A DNA stretch of 12,494 nucleotides from Candidatus Nanohaloarchaea archaeon (GTDB taxonomy: Archaea; Nanohalarchaeota; Nanosalinia; Nanosalinales; Nanosalinaceae): assembly GCA_041639695.1 (NCBI GenBank), contig JBEQBQ010000003.1, positions 1 through 12,494 of the forward strand, in the 5' to 3' direction. The notes beneath the pieces were generated by a model. That model was not told the DNA's origin, did no database searches, and saw nothing but the letters and a program-made list of their open reading frames with translations. Shown in pieces: positions 4,459 to 12,494 of this stretch. Positions within the stretch are counted from its first letter, which is position 1. The number at the start of each line of letters is the position of its first letter. A program made the translations under genes and the position numbers.

Positions 4459-4872
4459 ATGGATAAGTTCTGGATCGTGGTAACATCAGTTTTCGTCATC
4501 GGAGTAATAATGGTCCTATTCGCTGGTGGCGGAACAAGCATGACGGTTAAGGATCTGGAAACAGAATGCCAGTATAGACAGACTCCCGGTCAGTCAGTAA
4601 ACATAATGGCTGACAGCATTAGATTTAGCGGCAACTTCCCAGTAAACAATATTGAACAAGAACCTGCGGTCTCTTACTCAGTAAACGGCAACAGAATAAC
4701 CTTTGAGGTCGATGTAGAAGAGGCCGAAGAACCTGAAAGCTTCTACTACAACTGTCTAGCATCCGCAGTATACGATGTAGAAACCAGTAAAAAGCCAGGA
4801 CCGGGCAACTACATTCTCTCAGTTGTACATGATGGAGAAGTAGCGGAAAGAAGGATAGTAACTATCCGCTAA
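4459..4872 (+). CDS. Small secreted or N-terminally anchored protein with a probable beta-sandwich domain
   Basis: Hydrophobic N-terminus FWIVVTSVFVIGVIMVLFAG; acidic beta-rich remainder with two Cys (TECQY, YNCLA) and a PGNYILSVVHDG terminal strand; own TATA box; stop overlaps the ppsA stop (4869-4872). Confidence 0.75.
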   Translation: MDKFWIVVTSVFVIGVIMVLFAGGGTSMTVKDLETECQYRQTPGQSVNIMADSIRFSGNFPVNNIEQEPAVSYSVNGNRITFEVDVEEAEEPESFYYNCLASAVYDVETSKKPGPGNYILSVVHDGEVAERRIVTIR

Positions 4873-7397
4873 CTCTCATCAAGCCGGTAAACCACTTTAC
4901 CGTCGTGGTTCTCCGCCTTCACTTTTCCTTCTTTCGCCAACCAGCCTAGAGCTTGGTTCAAACTTTTTCCATCAATCTTCTTCGAAGTGTAGTCCATAAG
5001 CTTCTCCGCTGAAGCCGTTCCATGACTCTTCAACGTTTCATAGACATTTCCTGCAGGGGTTCCTATCATCGCATCAACCGAGAACTCGTAGCTGACTTCG
5101 TCATCAAGATCTTCTTCAGCTTCAGCAACCTTCATAACGGTCTCCAAGGCAACGTCGGGTGAAACCGAAACCGCGTCAATACCCTGTCCTACAAGGAACT
5201 CGGCATAACCATCATGTGTAGATGGTGCGTCACCACAGATTCCTACGTGAGCGTTCTCAGAATGTGCCTTGCCGATAAGCTTCCTCACAGATTCTTTTAC
5301 TGCAGGATCTCTCTCATCAAACAGTTCGGCAAGCTTGTCCGAGTTTCTATCAACTCCTAACGTTAACTGGGTTAGGTCGTTTGTTCCGATTGAGAAACCA
5401 TCAAACACCTGAGCAAATTCCTCTGCTCTGATGATGTTCGCAGGTATCTCAGCCATGACGTAGACATCGATGTCTCCCTGATCCAGTCCGTACTCCTTCA
5501 TTCTGGCCCGGACGTTCTTTCCTTCCTGGACTGTACGGCAGAAAGGCACCATCACAGTCAAGTTATCCAGGTCAAGCTCATCAACACATTTTCTAAGTGC
5601 TTTACACTCAAGTTCAAACGCTTTAGAGAACTTCTCATCGTAGTAACGTGAGGCGCCTCTGAAACCGATCATAGGGTTGGCCTCATCCGGCTCAAACTTC
5701 TCGCCGCCCTCAAGCTGTGCATACTCGTCCGACTTAAAATCGCTTAACCGGACTACAACCTGATCGGGGTAGAAAGCAGCCGCTATCTTACCAATACCTG
5801 ATCTAAGCGCCTGAGTGTACTCCTCCTCACGACCCTCTTCGATAAGTTTGAGAGGGTGTTCTCCAACGTGAGAGGAAATAATGAACTCTTCCCTGGCTAG
5901 ACCAACACCGTCTACTGGAAGCTGTGCAAGATGGAATGCCTCGCTCGGTTCTCCGATGTTCAACTGGACGTCGGTCTCGGTCTCCGGAATATTATCGATA
6001 TGGTGTTCCTGTACCTCGAACTCTAACTCGTCCTGCCATACCTTCCCGGTAGAGCTGGAACAATCTACAGTAACGGATTGTCCGTCCTTAAGCTTGGATG
6101 TCGCATTCTCTGTACCGATTACTGCTGGAACGCCGATTTCTCTGGAAACAATTGCGGCGTGACTGGTTCTTCCACCTTTGTTAGTAATGATTGCTCCTGC
6201 CTTCTTCATGATGGGCTCCCAGTCCGGATCGGTCATATCGGTAACGAGAACTTCTCCTTCCTCAAACTGATCGATCTCCTTTGGTGAGGAAAGAACGTGT
6301 GCTTTACCAGAACCGATCTTAGACCCGATAGCTTCTCCTTCTAGTAAGACTTCTGACTCTTCCTTGAGCTTGTGATCCTCGATCACGTTTTCATCTTTCT
6401 CTGCCTGAACGGTTTCAGGTCTTGCCTGTACAATATAGAGTTCTTTGGTCTGGCCATCGTAAACCCATTCGATGTCCATCGGCTTACCGTAGTGCTCTTC
6501 GATTTCAACGGCGTAGTTCGCTAACTCTTTAACCTGGTTGTCGGTTATACAGAATTTTTCCCTGTCGCTCATCGGAACCTTTTTCTCGATGTTCTCTTGG
6601 TTGTCGCCTTTCTCATGGTCCTCGTTTCTGACAAGTTTGACCTCCTTGTCTCCAACTTTTCTCTCTATAATACCCATGTTCTCCTTGAAGACTGTGAACT
6701 CGTCGGGATTAACTTCTCCGAGTACAACGTATTCTCCTAGGCCGTAGCTACCGTTGATAGTAACTACGTTTTCGAATCCGCTGTCAGGATCTAGGGTGAA
6801 CATGACTCCTGCAGCTCCAATATCTGAACGGCCCATCTTCTGGACTACTGCAGAAAGTTTGACGTCGAAATGTGAGAATCCTTTGTCTTCTCTGTAGGAG
6901 ATAGCCCGGTTTGTGAATAGGGAGGCGAAGCAGTCCTTGATTCTTTTTATTAGATCTTGTTTTCCTGAAACGTTAAGATAAGTCTCTTGTTGCCCTGCAA
7001 ATGAGGCTCCTGGAAGGTCTTCGGCTGTTGCAGAGGATCTTACAGCAACTTCAGGATTTTCAACTCCTAAATCTTCTTCAAGTTCTTCGTATGATTTTAT
7101 GAAGTCTTTTCTAAGTGATTCAGGCATTTCTGCCTCTTTAATATGTGCTCTGATCTGTTCACCGGTTCTCTGCAGACTGTTAATATCGTCGATATCCATT
7201 CCGTCGATCAGTCTTTCAATCTTCTCCTTCAAACCGGTTTCTTTGATGAATGTGTCGTATGCGTCAGCTGTTGTCGCAAAGCCGGGGAGTACAGGCACGT
7301 TGACGTTGTTGCTTAGCTCTCCAAGGTTTGCGCTTTTGCCTCCGACCTTTGCGGTATCGTCGGAGTCGATCTCATCGAACCAGAGCACGTTGTTCAT
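4869..7397 (-). CDS. ppsA: Phosphoenolpyruvate synthase (pyruvate, water dikinase) with an additional C-terminal winged-helix domain
   Basis: VGGKSANLGEL, VAVRSSATAEDLPGASFAGQQETYLNV, PMDIEW, IVQARPETV, phospho-His motif GGRTSHAAIVSRE, DGVGLAREEF, EANPMIGFRGASRY, FSIGTNDLTQ, GICG; about 80 extra residues follow the usual end. Confidence 0.97.
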   Translation of the reverse strand: MNNVLWFDEIDSDDTAKVGGKSANLGELSNNVNVPVLPGFATTADAYDTFIKETGLKEKIERLIDGMDIDDINSLQRTGEQIRAHIKEAEMPESLRKDFIKSYEELEEDLGVENPEVAVRSSATAEDLPGASFAGQQETYLNVSGKQDLIKRIKDCFASLFTNRAISYREDKGFSHFDVKLSAVVQKMGRSDIGAAGVMFTLDPDSGFENVVTINGSYGLGEYVVLGEVNPDEFTVFKENMGIIERKVGDKEVKLVRNEDHEKGDNQENIEKKVPMSDREKFCITDNQVKELANYAVEIEEHYGKPMDIEWVYDGQTKELYIVQARPETVQAEKDENVIEDHKLKEESEVLLEGEAIGSKIGSGKAHVLSSPKEIDQFEEGEVLVTDMTDPDWEPIMKKAGAIITNKGGRTSHAAIVSREIGVPAVIGTENATSKLKDGQSVTVDCSSSTGKVWQDELEFEVQEHHIDNIPETETDVQLNIGEPSEAFHLAQLPVDGVGLAREEFIISSHVGEHPLKLIEEGREEEYTQALRSGIGKIAAAFYPDQVVVRLSDFKSDEYAQLEGGEKFEPDEANPMIGFRGASRYYDEKFSKAFELECKALRKCVDELDLDNLTVMVPFCRTVQEGKNVRARMKEYGLDQGDIDVYVMAEIPANIIRAEEFAQVFDGFSIGTNDLTQLTLGVDRNSDKLAELFDERDPAVKESVRKLIGKAHSENAHVGICGDAPSTHDGYAEFLVGQGIDAVSVSPDVALETVMKVAEAEEDLDDEVSYEFSVDAMIGTPAGNVYETLKSHGTASAEKLMDYTSKKIDGKSLNQALGWLAKEGKVKAENHDGKVVYRLDES

Positions 7398-7421
7398 GTC
7401 TACGACTTCTTGAAGCTTCCA

Positions 7422-7429
7422 TTTAAAAA
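7422..7429 (-). promoter_or_regulatory. Putative TATA box (TTTTTAAA) for ppsA
   Basis: 25-32 nt upstream of ATG 7397 on the minus strand. Confidence 0.6.
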
Positions 7430-7462
7430 GAGCGTTGTGAGTTATAAGTGGAAAAACAGGTT

Positions 7463-7921
7463 TTAGGAGTTAAGAAGCTGCTCAGTTGTATTAAGAGCCT
7501 CCTGCTTCGCCCTTAGTTCATGATTGTCACTTGAAACAGTATCCTCCGAGCTTTCCTCGGATAAATTGGCCTCATCCTCAAGAAACTTGGCTGCTGAAAA
7601 ATCAAGATCTTCGTTTTTAGACTTGTACTCTTCAAGGTCGATGGATCCGGAGAGGAATTTCTCTTCGATAAAACGTTGCTCCTTGTCAGTTTCTTCAGAG
7701 AGGTACTGTTTCAGCTTCTTGACCTGTGCTTCGTTTAGTTCCAGGCTATCTCCTGATCTTTTAAGGATTCCTACTGTCTCCAAGCTATCTACCGCTTTCC
7801 TGAGTCTATCCTCATCTATACCTAGCTCACATGAAATATCCTGAACTTTCTTCGGGTTGTCCGCAACTGACTCGACTACGGTTCCAGCAACAGGATCAAT
7901 AAGAAGCTCTACGTCCCTCAT
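7463..7921 (-). CDS. Winged helix-turn-helix (ArsR/TrmB-like) protein with a SHOCT-like segment; start revised to ATG 7921 (152 aa)
   Basis: MRDVELLIDPVAGTVVESVADNPKKVQDISCELGIDEDRLRKAVDSLETVGILKRSG fits a wHTH pattern; IEEKFLSGSIDLEEYKSK is SHOCT-like. The tracked 8143 start overlaps the prepilin peptidase antisense, whereas ATG 7921 has TTTAAG at 7949-7954 upstream. Confidence 0.7.
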   Translation of the reverse strand: MRDVELLIDPVAGTVVESVADNPKKVQDISCELGIDEDRLRKAVDSLETVGILKRSGDSLELNEAQVKKLKQYLSEETDKEQRFIEEKFLSGSIDLEEYKSKNEDLDFSAAKFLEDEANLSEESSEDTVSSDNHELRAKQEALNTTEQLLNS

Positions 7922-7961
7922 ACTGTACAGTTTATAACTCCGGCTGAACTTAAAGACTACT
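7922..7961. promoter_or_regulatory. 40-bp overlapping divergent promoter region with a 10-bp palindrome
   Basis: TTTATAA (7931-7937, + strand, 25-31 nt before ATG 7962); TTTAAG (minus strand, 7949-7954, 28-33 nt before ATG 7921); perfect palindrome ACTGTACAGT at 7922-7931. Confidence 0.55.
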
Positions 7962-8843
7962 ATGTTGATCGCGGCCTCCCATGCAGTAGCTTTTATTGTT
8001 CTCTCAGTTGCCGCTGTATTCGACCTTAAAACCACGGAAGTGCCTGACACAGTCTCGATAATAGGTGTTGTGGCTGGTCTAGGCCTACATTTACTTGCTT
8101 CGATACCACAGATGAACTTCTCCACTATAACCAGTGCTGGCATCCTTCTCTCGGATCCTTTTATCTGGATACAGGCATTTGGAGACCCACTTATCTGGTC
8201 TCTAGGAGCTGGGGCTGTATTCTCGCTCTATGGCTGGGGGCTTTACTTCCTCAAGATGTGGGGTGGAGCGGACGCCTTCGCTATGAGCGTTCTAGGCTTT
8301 GCAGCACCCTACGCAATCTCAGGCACAGGAATATCTTTCGGACTCAGTATATTCCTAAACATACTGTTCCTTGGAATGATCTATAGTCTGGGCTATGCAG
8401 TTTACAAGTCAAGAGGCACAAATGCCTTATCTAAGACCTGGAAAATGGTCAGACAGCAGGAAAAAAGAATATCGCTTGAAATAATGTTTGCGGGCGCTCT
8501 TTCCGCTATGATGTCAATTTCAGGCTTCTACGTAAGCCTGCTATACTTCACTATCCTACTCTCTCTGATATTTCTCTACAGATATCTAAAAGTTATACAG
8601 GATGATCTGATGACTAAAGAACTGCAGGTTTCAGATTTAGAACCCGGAGATGTACTCGATGACAGCGAAGAACAGGGAGGAAAAGTAAAAGGCATCACGG
8701 AGGAAGAAATTAAGTCTATAGATAAAGAAAAGGTCAAGATAAAGACGGGAATACGTTTCATCCCGGTTTTCCCCGTTGCACTATTGTTAACGGAGTTAGG
8801 TGTAGGCGGACTATCTATAATAGCCTTTATACTTAGCTTATGA
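7962..8843 (+). CDS. Type IV prepilin/prearchaellin peptidase (A24 family; PibD/FlaK/EppA-like)
   Basis: Polytopic membrane protein with first catalytic Asp in AVFDLKTTEVPD, GxGD-type motif MWGGADA, a soluble insert (LEPGDVL..GITEEEI) and the C-terminal IRFIPVFPVALLL typical of archaeal A24 peptidases. Confidence 0.9.
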   Translation: MLIAASHAVAFIVLSVAAVFDLKTTEVPDTVSIIGVVAGLGLHLLASIPQMNFSTITSAGILLSDPFIWIQAFGDPLIWSLGAGAVFSLYGWGLYFLKMWGGADAFAMSVLGFAAPYAISGTGISFGLSIFLNILFLGMIYSLGYAVYKSRGTNALSKTWKMVRQQEKRISLEIMFAGALSAMMSISGFYVSLLYFTILLSLIFLYRYLKVIQDDLMTKELQVSDLEPGDVLDDSEEQGGKVKGITEEEIKSIDKEKVKIKTGIRFIPVFPVALLLTELGVGGLSIIAFILSL

Positions 8844-10140
8844 TTGTAACATCGCTTTGACTGGTCTTTGAACCTGACTCAATCTTCATTTCTAGATCAT
8901 GTATCTTTTCCTGGTTTCTCAGAACGTGTTCGGCAAGGTTATCTATCTTTTCTTCTAGGGTCTCTGATTGATTTTTGGGGGTTCTATTCTCCTCAAGCCT
9001 TTTTTCAAGTCTTTCCAGTCTCTTCATCATCGCTTCGGCCTCCTCCGATTCGAGCTCTGATTCCTTCTCGATTAATTCAGATCGTTCTGCCTCGAGTTCT
9101 GAAATCTTCTCTTCAAGTTTCTCGATGTACTCCTGGTTCTCTGAAATCACCTGTGTTAGACTATCAAGCTTGGAGCCAAGTTCCTCCTCATCTTCAAATC
9201 CTTCAAGAACTTTCTCCTGTAGCAGTTGTTCCATGCTTTCAATTCGTTCCTTGCCGTTCCTTTCGGCCCTGTCAAGCTCCGATTCAATTCTTCGAAGTTT
9301 ATCATCCATTTCCTGCCTTAACACTTCAGTCCTGTCATTAAGGTCTTTCTCTGTAACACCTTGATTATCAAGCCTTTTCTCGAGTCTCTTCACTTTCTTC
9401 CTGAGTTCTGTTACGTTAGCTTCATCTATCTTGGAGCCTGCACCATGCTTTTCTACCTCTTCAAGTCTGGATTTTATCGATTTAAGATCGAACTCTATGG
9501 CCGACAAATCTGCTCCAGAAGAACTTTCCGGTTCAGAAGCGGTCTGGCGCTCCTCGACATATACAAATTCGTCACTGTTGACGTTTTCTTTAATCTGCTC
9601 TAACTCGTCAAGCTTCTGCTCCATTTTTTTAAGCTTCTGTTTATCTACGGAACCTGCACTTCCGGATTCAATATCTGTCTTCAGCTTCTTTATCTGTTCA
9701 TAGTTTGCTCTAACTGCCTTCCTGTATTTTTCAGGCATCGAAGAATCAGATTCAACGTTTTCAACCTTTTTCTCTATTTCTTCAAGCCTTTCCTCGAATT
9801 CTTCACCGATTTCCGGGGCTTCAAACTCTTTTTCCCGGATATCTTTTATCTGTTCGTAAAGATACTCCAGTTTCTCGTGAACCTTTCCTTCTTGGTACTC
9901 TTCTTTAATCTGCTCTACCATGTTGAGGCGTTTTTCAAGCTCTTCCTTGTCCATATGGTTGAGCATGTCCTCTATCTCGTTTACTTCGTCCTCTATAGAA
10001 AGAGATTCAAGTTGGGCCATCATGTCCCGGTCTTCAATATCGCTTACACGTTCCTCAAGCTCTTCAATAGAAGTTTCAATACCTTTGAGCTCGTTCTCGA
10101 GCTTTTCCCTGCTCACGTCTTCCGAGACTCCATCCGCCAT
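8833..10140 (-). CDS. Acidic long coiled-coil protein of unknown function
   Basis: 435-aa ORF rich in E/K/L with heptad-like patterns, interrupted by S/G linkers; no TM, signal peptide or Walker motif; TATA-like TTTTTATT at 10163-10170. Confidence 0.8.
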   Translation of the reverse strand: MADGVSEDVSREKLENELKGIETSIEELEERVSDIEDRDMMAQLESLSIEDEVNEIEDMLNHMDKEELEKRLNMVEQIKEEYQEGKVHEKLEYLYEQIKDIREKEFEAPEIGEEFEERLEEIEKKVENVESDSSMPEKYRKAVRANYEQIKKLKTDIESGSAGSVDKQKLKKMEQKLDELEQIKENVNSDEFVYVEERQTASEPESSSGADLSAIEFDLKSIKSRLEEVEKHGAGSKIDEANVTELRKKVKRLEKRLDNQGVTEKDLNDRTEVLRQEMDDKLRRIESELDRAERNGKERIESMEQLLQEKVLEGFEDEEELGSKLDSLTQVISENQEYIEKLEEKISELEAERSELIEKESELESEEAEAMMKRLERLEKRLEENRTPKNQSETLEEKIDNLAEHVLRNQEKIHDLEMKIESGSKTSQSDVTIIS

Positions 10141-10162
10141 ATCCCCAATTTAACGAGACGTG

Positions 10163-10170
10163 AATAAAAA
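10163..10170 (-). promoter_or_regulatory. Putative TATA box (TTTTTATT) for the coiled-coil gene
   Basis: 23-30 nt upstream of ATG 10140. Confidence 0.5.
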
Positions 10171-10184
10171 GCTGTTAGTTTGAG

Positions 10185-10197
10185 ATAAAGAAAAAAT
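10185..10197 (-). terminator. Possible oligo-U terminator of the pilin gene
   Basis: Minus strand reads ATTTTTTCTTTAT about 25-35 nt after the pilin stop codon; archaeal terminators are typically U-rich tracts. Confidence 0.4.
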
Positions 10198-10220
10198 AGT
10201 GGGAAAATATGCTATTTGCC

Positions 10221-10661
10221 CTAGTTACTGTAGGACTCGTTTGTCCAGGTTGCTCCTCCAGCACCTTCACATTCGATCGGCGTAGCCGAAATCTCTGTGA
10301 GAGTACCTTCGTAGACATCTCCAGAAGCGTTGTTGTACGCTACCTGAATGTCTGTAGGTCCGTTAGATAGCTGGACGTAATCCTGTGCGGGCGATTGACC
10401 GTCGAACTGCCACGTCACTGAGACGTTGCCGACAGCTTCCTGTCCCTTATCCTGCTGTACTGTTACAGCGGATTCGTTGTAGTCGGACAGAGAAAGGCTG
10501 ACTGTCGAACATCCTGGGATTTCTCCAGCTCTGTCGCTAGTATCTCCCTGTACGTTCTTCATCAGCTCTGGTGCCCACTGGGCAAATAGAGATGCTACAG
10601 CCATCGTGAATGCAATTAGCAGGACTGCAGCGATCAAAGGTGAAATACCTTTTCTTCTCAT
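10221..10661 (-). CDS. Archaeal type IV pilin (class III signal peptide)
   Basis: MRRKG|ISPLIAAVLLIAFTMAVASLF: basic residues, KG cleavage site, then the S-P-hydrophobic helix of archaeal pilins/archaellins. Two Cys (PGCS, IECE) and sequons NES, NVS, NAS, NES. Confidence 0.92.
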   Translation of the reverse strand: MRRKGISPLIAAVLLIAFTMAVASLFAQWAPELMKNVQGDTSDRAGEIPGCSTVSLSLSDYNESAVTVQQDKGQEAVGNVSVTWQFDGQSPAQDYVQLSNGPTDIQVAYNNASGDVYEGTLTEISATPIECEGAGGATWTNESYSN

Positions 10662-10683
10662 AGAACCGTCTTATAAACACTTG

Positions 10684-10691
10684 TATTTAAA
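10684..10691 (-). promoter_or_regulatory. Putative TATA box (TTTAAATA) for the pilin gene
   Basis: 23-30 nt upstream of ATG 10661. Confidence 0.6.
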
Positions 10692-10704
10692 GCTTCCCAA
10701 GCTC

Positions 10705-11229
10705 TTAACGCCTTTCTCTCAACCATAGACCCCATAGAACAAGTACTACGAAGGTCAAACCCCACCTCCAGAAAATAGAGTGGATGATCTCGAAAGAGAT
10801 TATACCGGAGTAGCTGAGGTAAACTGTGGTTACAATTCTCAAAATATTAGCTAACTGTATCAACACAATCCCTGAGATCAAATACTTCCAGTTCCTGTGT
10901 CCTTCTGATGCAAACATGAGGCCTGAAAAAGCAGCCACTGACTTCCAGCCTGTACAGTCTCTCGTTATCAAATAGTCTACGCTCTCTCCCACAAGCAAAT
11001 ATCCTTGAACTGCGAAATCTATTCCTAGAAAACCTAACAAGCTGGATGTGATTCGGGCCAATAGCTCTTGAAACGGTTCAAGATCCAAGCCTAAAAACAA
11101 TATTAGCTGGAAGAAAAGACCGGCCAACAGGAGCTTTCCTATGAATCCCGAGGTCTCGAAAAGCTTTCTCTGTCTCTCGTTCTCGGGTTCAAATATCTCT
11201 TCCTTCAGAGAAATGATCTTTTGCAACAT
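10705..11229 (-). CDS. Archaeosortase/exosortase family membrane cysteine protease
   Basis: Multi-TM protein with YLITRDCTGWKS (catalytic Cys), ANILRIV (Arg) and FEIIHSIFW (His), in the order typical of the exosortase/archaeosortase family. Confidence 0.85.
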   Translation of the reverse strand: MLQKIISLKEEIFEPENERQRKLFETSGFIGKLLLAGLFFQLILFLGLDLEPFQELLARITSSLLGFLGIDFAVQGYLLVGESVDYLITRDCTGWKSVAAFSGLMFASEGHRNWKYLISGIVLIQLANILRIVTTVYLSYSGIISFEIIHSIFWRWGLTFVVLVLWGLWLRERR

Positions 11230-11626
11230 CCCACTTTCTAACCCCTTTTTCTCTGGAACGCTTGTTAATCTTCCGGAACTGCTTACTCAAAGACTTGTAT
11301 GCATGTAGTGCAGACGCATGAGCATCTTTCTCGTGTGAGTTATCGCCGATACCCAGCTCTTCCTTCCGTTGTACCGGAAGGTCTTCTTCTGGCTCGAAAC
11401 GTGTTGCGCCTAATGAGGAAGCGATCTTCTCAACGTTTGAAGGCATTTCCTCTTTATCACAGCTCACAATAACAGGATGGCCTTCCTCTATAATCCTTTC
11501 AATTATCTCCGGTCTAGAGAACTCCTTTCGGCTTTCAAGAAAAACAAGCTCGCCCTCAAGATCAAGCGCTGCAACAGCCGAAGTATTACCGGGATCTATC
11601 CCCACAACTAAAGGTTTTTTACTCAT
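11189..11626 (-). CDS. DUF460-domain protein (RNase H-like fold); start revised to ATG 11626 (145 aa)
   Basis: VVGIDPGNTSAVAALDLEG, GHPVIVSCD, VEKIASSLGA..FEPEEDL..RK, NSHEKDAHASALHAY match the archaeal DUF460/COG2433 N-terminal domain. ATG 11626 overlaps the hef stop codon (ATGAGTAA). Confidence 0.85.
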   Translation of the reverse strand: MSKKPLVVGIDPGNTSAVAALDLEGELVFLESRKEFSRPEIIERIIEEGHPVIVSCDKEEMPSNVEKIASSLGATRFEPEEDLPVQRKEELGIGDNSHEKDAHASALHAYKSLSKQFRKINKRSREKGVRKWDVAKDHFSEGRDI

Positions 11627-12494
11627 ACTCTTTCTCCACGAGTTCTCGGATTGATGAAGCTTTTTTGTCCCCAATACCTTCTATCTGTTTAAGTTTATCT
11701 TCCGAAGCAGAAAAAATCTCTTCAATTGAGCTGAACTCTTCAAGAAGCCTCTTCGCAAGCTTCGTGTTCACCGAAGGAAGCCCAGCAACAACAAACTCCT
11801 GGAGCTGCCTCTCTGTAGTACCTGATTTAGATCCTCTAACCGCTACATCCCTGTCCTGCTCTTCCTGCTCTCGTTTGGCCATGGCTTTCAACATTTCAGA
11901 TGTTTCCTCTCTGTCATCGGCCCAGAGAACAGGTATTCCATGATCCACAGCTATTGAAGCCAATGCCCCTCTGATAGCGTTGGGATGGATTTTCCTGTGG
12001 GAGTAAAGCTCCTCGCCCTCGATAAGAAGTACAGGTTTTTCGAACTGCTGGAGCTCTGGTAGCTGCGAGAAAAGCCTCTGATCGACAAGCGAATCAACAA
12101 AGTCCTCGGTCTGTTTCCTTTCAACAGCGGTTCTATCCGAAACTAGGAAGTCCGCTACATCCAGGCGTTCCTGGCTTACCTCGATATCAAGCTTTGCCAG
12201 TTTCTTCAGTATCTTGTTCTCTCTATCATCTGCAACAATCTCTATTTTATCCTCATCTTCCTCTTCTTCCTGTTTCTCTGCTTCAAAGCTGTCCAAGGTC
12301 TTGTGATCTTCTGTCTCCAGTTCTTCATCCTTCAGCTCCTGTAGAACGCTGTTCATGTTGTTCTTCTTGTGGTGGGCGCTCCAGTAATGGCCTTCATCCC
12401 TTGTATTTTCTGCCATTAAAACGTAGACTTTTCCGGATTCCTGTCTACCTGTTCTTCCGGAACGCTGAATATCTCTTATACCTGAAGCAACAGG
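11619..12494 (-). CDS. hef: Hef (FANCM/XPF-like) helicase-nuclease, 5'-truncated: end of SF2 helicase, ERCC4 nuclease and HhH2 domains
   Basis: The frame stays open from 12494 (PVASGIRDIQRSGRTGRQESGKVYVLMAENTRDE), containing helicase motif VI QRxGRTGR. Then IVADDRE, ADFLVSDRTAVERKQTEDF (ERCC4 ERK motif), and tandem HhH (GLPSVNTKLA, IEGIGDKKA). Confidence 0.95.
   Translation of the reverse strand, partial: PVASGIRDIQRSGRTGRQESGKVYVLMAENTRDEGHYWSAHHKKNNMNSVLQELKDEELETEDHKTLDSFEAEKQEEEEDEDKIEIVADDRENKILKKLAKLDIEVSQERLDVADFLVSDRTAVERKQTEDFVDSLVDQRLFSQLPELQQFEKPVLLIEGEELYSHRKIHPNAIRGALASIAVDHGIPVLWADDREETSEMLKAMAKREQEEQDRDVAVRGSKSGTTERQLQEFVVAGLPSVNTKLAKRLLEEFSSIEEIFSASEDKLKQIEGIGDKKASSIRELVEKEYE

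Follow-up and report, generated by a model that had tools for sequence, protein, structure and literature searches.

What a winged-helix domain does at the end of a central metabolic enzyme is the question raised by a locus in a 12,494-nucleotide stretch of DNA (the window; contig JBEQBQ010000003.1 of assembly GCA_041639695.1) from a Candidatus Nanohaloarchaea archaeon. Here a single gene on the minus strand, at 4869..7397, encodes an 842-residue phosphoenolpyruvate (PEP) synthase, PpsA, whose C terminus runs on in frame into a domain of the DUF2582 family. The fusion is genuine and gives a known enzyme a variant form found throughout its lineage, and we propose, with moderate confidence and on the basis of structure prediction, that the tail is a homodimerisation or assembly module rather than a reader of DNA.

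A PEP synthase with an additional C-terminal domain

The gene, delimited from the open reading frame (ORF) list and its translation and annotated with Pfam and NCBIfam, encodes the three domains of PpsA in canonical order, all on the minus strand. These are the nucleotide-binding domain PPDK_N (residues 17-342, positions 6372..7349; PF01326, 417 bits), the mobile phospho-histidine domain PEP-utilizers (residues 378-448, 6054..6266; PF00391, 97.6 bits) and the PEP/pyruvate-binding TIM-barrel domain PEP-utilizers_C (residues 472-758, 5124..5984; PF02896, 206.7 bits). The GGRTSH histidine loop and the GICGD cysteine motif are both intact: His413 of the GGRTSHAA loop, at 6159-6161, lies within the mobile domain, and Cys721 of GICGD, placed at 5235-5237 from the motif table, lies within PEP-utilizers_C. 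Following the PpsA/PPDK literature we take the histidine to be the phospho-carrier and the cysteine to be a functional residue, and the gene is, to judge from these motifs, a catalytically intact PEP synthase. Of 21 canonical fused sequences, 20 have the loop as GGRTSHAA and one (L036) has GGRTSHTA, with the histidine kept. Separately, an intein of about 400 residues (LAGLIDADG_3 / Hom_end) lies inside some nanohaloarchaeal genes for the fused protein, such as those of P0016 (1254 aa) and P0054 (1247 aa), and at G067:C10:26113-29871 it interrupts the phospho-histidine loop near query residue 411-416.

Residues 1-764 are like canonical PpsA (E. coli; N. meningitidis 2OLS) in domains and motifs, and match the equivalog models NF005057 (1077.9 bits, cut-off 598) and TIGR01418 (1047.6 bits, cut-off 739.75) end to end. 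Both models cover residues 2-764 only, and no NCBIfam model matches the tail region. Whereas canonical PpsA ends at about residue 765, the window's protein adds 78 residues of linker, arm and winged helix. The translation runs ...VSPDVALETVMKVAEAEE, then DLDDEVSYEFSVDA, then MIGTPAGNVYETLKSHGTASAEKLMDYTSKKIDGKSLNQALGWLAKEGKV and then KAENHDGKVVYRLDES up to the stop codon at 4869-4871; the usual PpsA end, ...KVAEAEE, passes via DLDDEVSYEFSVDA into a 65-residue domain closing ...GKVVYRLDES*. On the same strand, the acidic flexible linker DLDDE (residues 763-767, 5097..5111) is defined by the linker table and by a low predicted local distance difference test (pLDDT) score, and the arm VSYEFSVD (residues 768-775, 5073..5096) by the alignment and by its place in the interface of the dimer prediction described below. 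The winged helix proper (residues 776-840, 4878..5072) comprises helix 1, a strand, helix 2, helix 3 and a two-strand wing; its helix 3, GKSLNQALGWLAK (residues 810-822, 4932..4970), carries the family signature and falls in the predicted dimer interface.

DUF2582 (PF10771) is matched at residues 776-837 with 47.4 bits in the whole protein and, when the tail is scored by itself, with 52.5 bits (gathering cut-off 24.2); a family search of the organism's own genome placed it at 4887-5072 (51.9 bits). A sequence-only reading of this DNA had proposed, naming no strand, an in-frame fusion of PpsA to a DUF2582-type winged helix-turn-helix domain, and both the Pfam match and the presence in the translation of the strings that it quoted bear this out. 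Its statement that canonical PpsA has no such domain likewise holds, since the NCBIfam models end at 764 and the PpsA of sister families is also without it.

Distribution and age of the fusion

The window belongs to a draft genome (G000) of 971 kb in 38 contigs that is 89% complete. When the 83-residue tail was searched against 40 relatives, 24 of them of the same family, it was matched in 23 of these 24, always inside an open frame of 353-926 aa. A whole-protein search of all 69 other genomes of the order gave a best PpsA-like match extending into the tail in 45 of the 49 other genomes of the family, one-contig (closed) genomes included. Of these 45, 42 show 66-97% identity to the query and the remaining three are divergent (32-40%). 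The match extends to query residue 836 or further, at 66-97% identity, in 40 family genomes; in G059 it is ended at residue 802 by the contig end, and in G008 a longer linker precedes a tail in the same frame. The four family genomes outside the count are G064 (contig-end fragment only), G062 (truncated divergent form), G014 and G045.

Three sister families have orthologues, and there the matches that attain the C terminus end at query residue 762-767. This is so for the high-identity orthologues of G025, G026, G029, G043, G033, G039, G040, G032 and G034, while that of G027 ends at 765 on a contig-end piece; nine translated sister-family PpsA proteins have just 2-14 residues beyond KVAEAE. One sister-family match, in G038, runs to query residue 799 by reading through a stop into unrelated sequence, and was rejected as a tail. 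No separate DUF2582 ORF was found next to an unfused ppsA, the stand-alone matches in sister family f3 lying on contigs other than that of ppsA. A second, unfused PpsA (G015:C13:20645-22888, L051; 60% identical, 776-aa frame) stands beside the fused copy in one family genome and could be a transferred gene or contamination.

A profile of the 21 aligned tails, run against longer proteins, gave 148 matches; among the 120 of these that were listed, all four Pfam domains are present in 102, from several sources. The named sources of fused proteins are Nanohaloarchaea (Ca. Nanohalococcus occultus, Ca. Nanohalobium and Ca. Nanosalina), and database annotation calls the proteins only 'phosphoenolpyruvate synthase'. 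When 1.84 billion representatives were searched exhaustively with HMMER, using a junction-spanning profile, the long proteins matching both sides of the junction were all PpsA-derived (842, 828, 804, 776 and 765 aa), and PpsA-derived proteins of 709 and 695 aa matched from linker through tail.

The tail is under purifying selection. Between the window and its congener G002 the ratio of non-synonymous to synonymous substitution rates (dN/dS) is 0.012 over 80 tail codons (dS 0.88) and 0.017 for the core, with dS of about 0.9-1.35 across tail and core. Logan contigs from the probable source run, a second assembly of the same and not of independent DNA, cover 4600-5600 in one piece with zero differing letters or indels. 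Among the runs listed as containing this stretch the probable source run is the only one, and none is of RNA. Because the tail frame is conserved across relatives, there is no frameshift. An artificial joining of two genes in a 38-contig draft, whether by frameshift, missed stop or chimeric assembly, is refuted by conservation and deserves practically no credence, with the same in-frame junction in 45 of 49 family genomes, one-contig ones included, and in 102 of the 120 protein clusters listed, from several sources, and with the tail under purifying selection and a second assembly concordant. The fusion is real and old, the tail having probably been gained at the origin of one nanohaloarchaeal family.

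No published description of the tail was found in the literature searched on DUF2582/PF10771 or on nanohaloarchaeal PEP synthases. The PF10771 papers listed concern DprA and DUF1471, and not PpsA. The word 'winged' does not occur in two of the three most relevant papers on the nanohaloarchaeal enzymes, the third, PMC7443923, being covered for its passages on PEPS and gluconeogenesis, and among the matches listed for 2L01, 2L02, BVU3908 and BT2368 nothing relevant was found. The view of the sequence-only reading that the fusion had not been characterised before is upheld in this respect. Its proviso that the architecture might already be common and described is half right: it is common inside the Nanohaloarchaea, by the 102 of 120 clusters, but no description in print was found.

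Predicted self-pairing of the tail

Ten columns are invariant among the aligned tails (21, taken from 20 genomes together with the window): G20, A23, G24, L30, G59, W60, L61, A62, E64 and K66. The tether of relatives is variable and acidic (14-40 residues, net charge -10 to +1 in the linker table), and pLDDT falls below 50 at residues 766-772 of a full-length model and at residues 1-8 of a model of the tail. Ahead of the domain an alternating hydrophobic segment (YEFSV or VEVEV) is kept across genera, and within the domain the tails carry a second-helix (H2) motif of the fused type, ATAxKLxxYT. AlphaFold2 models the tail as a classic winged helix (mean pLDDT 80; 85-92 in the core), consisting of helix 15-33, strand 35-37, helices 38-45 and 51-63, and strands 67-72 and 75-80.

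Foldseek matched this model to the solved DUF2582 structures 2l02 (template modelling (TM) score 0.71-0.72) and 2l01 (0.67-0.71) with E values of 4e-4 to 5e-4. The other top matches were the Sulfolobus centromere-binding protein AspA, the HOP2 winged helix, Z-alpha, ArsR, MarR, PadR and Fur, and best matches ranged from E 3e-4 to 6e-3. On these models the tail is a generic winged helix, closest to its own DUF2582 family. With the stand-alone proteins of that family (2L01, BVU3908; 2L02, BT2368) it shares the fold (TM 0.67-0.72) and the signatures IG..AG.V...L and ALGWLA[KR]EGK[IV]; unlike them, free proteins of 65-82 aa, it is fused to an enzyme and has its own H2 motif.

Prediction of the tail in two copies returned a median score of 0.74, the best of three controls reaching 0.00. 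That mark was attained by 20 of 30 proteins solved as one-chain pairs, compared with 1 of 23 whose solved form is a single chain. Across three runs the dimer prediction agreed in at least 96% of contacts, with a partner pLDDT of at least 81. The predicted interface is formed by tail residues 9-13, 15, 18-20, 38, 51-52, 55-60, 62-65, 67-73 and 76, and so contains the invariant G59, W60, A62 and E64. Its lowest-error contacts lay helix 3 on helix 3 (55-55, 59-59, 60-60 and 63-63), and it also takes in the first wing strand and the arm (9-13, 15 and 18-20) against the partner's helix 3. The prediction favours self-pairing. Pairing through helix 3 would explain why an invariant Gly-Trp stands midway in a would-be recognition helix, and packing of the arm on the partner would explain the conserved alternating pattern ahead of the domain.

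The idea that the DUF2582 family behaves as a paired unit fits its two-chain entries and its tandem proteins. Both solved entries, 2L01 and 2L02, contain two chains, and the exhaustive HMMER search returned numerous proteins that the profile matched in 2, 4, 7 or 13 places. Pfam finds tandem DUF2582 domains in P0135, a Thermoplasmatota protein of 131 aa (two domains), and in P0132, of 309 aa (four domains). Two further proteins may be recorded here: P0117 (351 aa) represents a Thermoplasmatales type of about 350 aa with two DUF2582 domains plus a coiled coil, and P0163 (1439 aa) has 13 profile-matched stretches, yet a single weak DUF2582 match in Pfam.

Divergent relatives that keep the tail

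Some matches of the tail profile have, by Pfam, PPDK_N plus DUF2582 only. Four divergent groups were aligned with the canonical proteins: G001; G011/P0109; P0116/P0118/P0119/G065; and G064b. All four are without GGRTSH, GICGD, TNDL and the ATP-grasp motif RSSATAEDLPGASFAGQQ, although G064b retains a His in an altered loop, and NPMxGFRGASRY is also gone in every group but G001. The tail signature IGxxAGxVY...HQALGWLA[KN]EG[KR], in contrast, is kept in three of the four groups and is more divergent in G064b (NMALGWLLREDK). Decay is graded by Pfam score through proteins of 828, 804, 776, 765, 709 and 695 aa. The divergent forms have intact reading frames of 686-765 aa, and they are referred to below as dead.

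Among canonical pairs the body is more alike than the tail (86% vs 68% and 69% vs 47% identity), and between dead forms and the window this is reversed, with the tail 38-56% and the body 21-37% identical. The dead groups are 73-80% different from one another in the body, and P0116 and P0118 agree at 63 of 63 tail residues and at 603 of 673 in the body. G001 is assigned to the window's own genus. The G011 copy is flanked by genes for a coiled-coil protein and an A24 peptidase and, on its other side, by those for MinD and a surface protein; being placed in the window's gene order, it is a positional orthologue. In one pair of dead genes dN/dS is 0.22 over 363 codons, so that selection is relaxed but not neutral. 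Motif loss, intact frames and selection together mark these divergent relatives, and not the window's own gene, as pseudoenzymes; one genome, G064, carries both canonical and divergent forms. A rule by which PpsA is dead where pyruvate kinase is present was tried and rejected: G001 and G011 fit it, G062 and G065 do not, and it is also broken by the many genomes having both pyruvate kinase and a canonical PpsA.

Proposed assembly of PpsA through its tail

The functional unit of PpsA is taken, by homology to PPDK, to be a dimer whose conserved interface is formed by the C-terminal PEP-binding domains (bioRxiv 10.1101/2022.08.11.503304). The same source describes a 24-mer of Pyrococcus furiosus PpsA organised by a C-terminal helix, and cites work in which S. 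marinus PpsA no longer oligomerised once its last 20 residues had been removed. The P. furiosus helix and the S. marinus deletion make the C terminus of PpsA a proven site for assembly elements, and since the enzyme is already dimeric via its PEP-binding domains, a self-pairing tail would add a second two-fold contact.

We propose, with moderate confidence, the following mechanism. The tails would pair symmetrically through helix 3 (NQALGWLAKEGK), whose glycine and tryptophan would lie where the two helices cross, and through an N-terminal arm (VSYEFSV) swapped between them. The second two-fold contact thereby created could either clasp one PpsA dimer or link dimers into larger assemblies. The logic would be the same as that of the C-terminal helix of the hyperthermophile 24-mers, though the element is unrelated. 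Assembly appears to have been selected for its own sake, and the protein probably also acts, beyond catalysis, as a scaffold or regulator. We infer that the tails may pair in the cell, that pairing would affect quaternary structure and that the protein may have a second role.

The 24-meric enzymes, S. marinus 'MAPS' and that of P. furiosus, offer the nearest parallel in having an extra self-association element C-terminal to the PEP-binding domain. Theirs is a short α-helix with a Met-Fe(II) centre that forms tetramers; here, in halophiles, it is an unrelated 65-residue winged helix on a flexible tether with a predicted two-fold pair. A MAPS-type C-terminal helix with an Fe(II)-coordinating methionine is not present in the window's C terminus, and the unfused sisters end 2-14 residues after KVAEAE. 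Among the ideas put forward in the sequence-only reading, that of an assembly domain fits best, by the controlled dimer prediction.

Several points weigh against an assembly role. The dimer is a prediction; as DUF2582 dimers are in the Protein Data Bank, a pass in the prediction may show likeness to solved complexes rather than binding. Conservation is barely higher in the interface, with a mean majority fraction of 0.69 vs 0.63 elsewhere. The full-length AlphaFold2 model, built from 21 close sequences, has a pLDDT of 57 and a predicted TM score of 0.37 and is too poor to place the tail on the body. The nearest solved folds include the DNA binders AspA, ArsR and MarR, and the tail is far less acidic (-5 to +2) than the body (-52 to -89). 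A purely enzyme-stabilising role does not explain why dead enzymes retain the tail. As for the dead forms themselves, genomes with such a form alone are 72-82% complete and a canonical copy may therefore be unassembled, and the G001 contig could be contamination.

Because the tail persists in several lineages whose catalytic motifs are gone, the protein probably has a non-catalytic role. It is conceivable, and we entertain the idea tentatively, that PpsA moonlights: the tail would serve a non-catalytic job, as a regulator of carbon flow, possibly through DNA or a partner protein, or as a self-assembling scaffold, with several lineages turning into dedicated pseudoenzymes. The reversed conservation of tail and body and the relaxed but not neutral selection on a dead pair are consistent with such a job, with the reservations just given about the genomes concerned.

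Possible DNA binding and the ppsA promoter

The sequence-only reading had also suggested a trigger enzyme, in which the PpsA dimer would bind DNA, for example at its own promoter, and link the PEP/pyruvate or phospho-histidine state to transcription. On this view the dead forms, which that reading did not foresee, would be dedicated regulators derived from PpsA. An enzyme evolving into a regulator would be expected to keep a DNA-binding tail while its body decays. The fold speaks for this reading, being akin to that of AspA with DNA (5k5q), of the ArsR-type proteins HlyU, CzrA and SqrR, and of MarR, PadR and Fur, as does a near-neutral tail (-5 to +2) on a very acidic protein (body -52 to -89). 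There is also an archaeal precedent in RbkR, a winged-helix riboflavin kinase (PMC5397151), which is similarly a metabolic enzyme joined to a winged helix; for RbkR, however, DNA binding and a regulon are reported in the abstract, whereas here the recognition helix is modelled in a protein interface.

A further point in favour of DNA binding is a gene-specific element by the TATA box. Compared over the upstream regions of 21 loci, the ppsA promoter of the window occupies 7415..7451 on the minus strand, about 20-55 nt upstream of the ATG. It contains a TATA-like box, TTTTTAAATGG (7419-7429), directly preceded by the element CACAACGCTC (7430-7439), with CCAC (7448-7451) about 10 bases upstream of the latter. 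Across genera the consensus is CCAC, 9-10 nt, YCAYAACGC and TTTTTAWATGG. The strict motif stands at a fixed distance in 16 of the 21 loci, with near variants in four others, and the composite occurs just 2-3 times in the 971-kb genome. It also precedes the dead genes of G062 and G065, and not the unfused sister-family genes. The element is a candidate operator for some regulator, to judge from its sequence and position; because it co-varies with phylogeny, its tie to the tail is not independent evidence. The promoter has its end some 20 nt upstream of the ATG, in keeping with an mRNA that is leaderless or has a short leader. An inverted repeat around the TATA box was looked for and rejected, the arms measuring 0-6 nt and being inconsistent among loci.

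Against these points, the putative recognition helix of the tail (NQALGWLAKEG) is buried in the predicted subunit interface, contains the invariant Gly-Trp and has an acidic N-cap (D50 in 81% of sequences); outside the interface K40 is the sole conserved basic residue. No publication tying DUF2582 to DNA binding was found in the literature searched, and the ligand-binding motifs that a sensor would require are likewise gone from the dead forms. We consider a DNA-binding trigger enzyme unlikely, and on this point the predicted interface argues against the sequence-only reading.

Possible docking and free DUF2582 genes

Equally doubtful, in our view, is a docking site, by which the tail would pair with a free 65-aa DUF2582 protein or another partner that regulates or localises PpsA. 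The window's genome does encode a stand-alone DUF2582 protein, in a gene at G000:C4:12028-12222 (L073:4029-4223) that scores 59 bits and is 35% identical to the tail, and such a gene is found in nine further relatives (loci L062-L072). It is well conserved in the Nanohaloarchaeota (M.ERIGELAGYVW...MAIGWLAREGKLEF) and bears IGWLA[KR]E.K, the motif of the predicted interface. The C-terminal winged helix of Gram-negative DprA provides a precedent: it, too, is a small appended domain that PF10771, among other models, detects and that serves protein contact, binding the helicase ComM and not double-stranded DNA (bioRxiv 10.1101/2024.10.21.619469), although the host protein differs and the contact is heterotypic there and predicted to be homotypic here. 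Also in favour of docking, PSRP/DUF299, the known regulator of bacterial PpsA, was not found in the window's genome and is reported to be absent from archaea (PMC8100219).

Against docking stand the distance of the free gene from ppsA, its occurrence in a sister family without the fusion (three loci of family f3) and its recurrent neighbour, a gene for an M29-like peptidase. In a scan of 69 of the 74 ORFs (five were left out) within 3 kb of ten stand-alone Nanohaloarchaeota DUF2582 genes, Peptidase_M29 (five) and DUF5794 (four) were the commonest families, and glycogen enzymes were not among the 25 most frequent of the 34 Pfam families there.

Neighbouring genes in the window

Upstream of ppsA, on the same strand, a 226-aa ORF at 7463-8143 has a winged-helix-like middle (DUF4423, 20 bits, below the cut-off) and a long N-terminal extension that overlaps a prepilin-peptidase-like ORF at 7962-8843 on the plus strand; because of this overlap its true start is probably a later methionine. 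In most other genera the upstream neighbour of ppsA is, by eye, a divergently transcribed gene with an archaeal-pilin-like N terminus. The remainder of the window, 8833-12494, encodes a long acidic coiled-coil protein, a pilin-like protein, an archaeosortase/exosortase-like membrane protein, a DUF460 protein and a Hef/XPF-type ERCC4 nuclease. The order of the coiled-coil and A24-peptidase genes is conserved in G011.

Implications for nanohaloarchaeal metabolism and the DUF2582 family

Pyruvate kinase (PF00224) was not found in the window's genome, in its congener G002 (99% complete) or in 30 of the 50 genomes of family f1, closed ones included, and ADP-dependent PFK/GK is encoded in the window's genome. 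PpsA appears to be the sole PEP-pyruvate enzyme in many of these symbionts, as judged from gene content, in which case the final, ATP-yielding reaction of their fermentative glycolysis would fall to it. An ATP-yielding glycolytic role has been proposed for PpsA in nanohaloarchaea (PMC10266531) and noted for Thermococcus (PMC8100219). The latter review states that nothing is known of the post-translational control of archaeal PEP synthases, and given this gap an extra domain that is family-wide and under selection offers a concrete handle on regulation.

The fused tail likewise offers a way into DUF2582, a family that is widespread and has two solved structures but no assigned function. That the body has died repeatedly while the tail survived amounts to a natural experiment, which suggests that the tail-bearing protein does more than PEP chemistry. 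If moonlighting proved true, it would give DUF2582 its first function and archaeal PEP synthase its first known layer of control.

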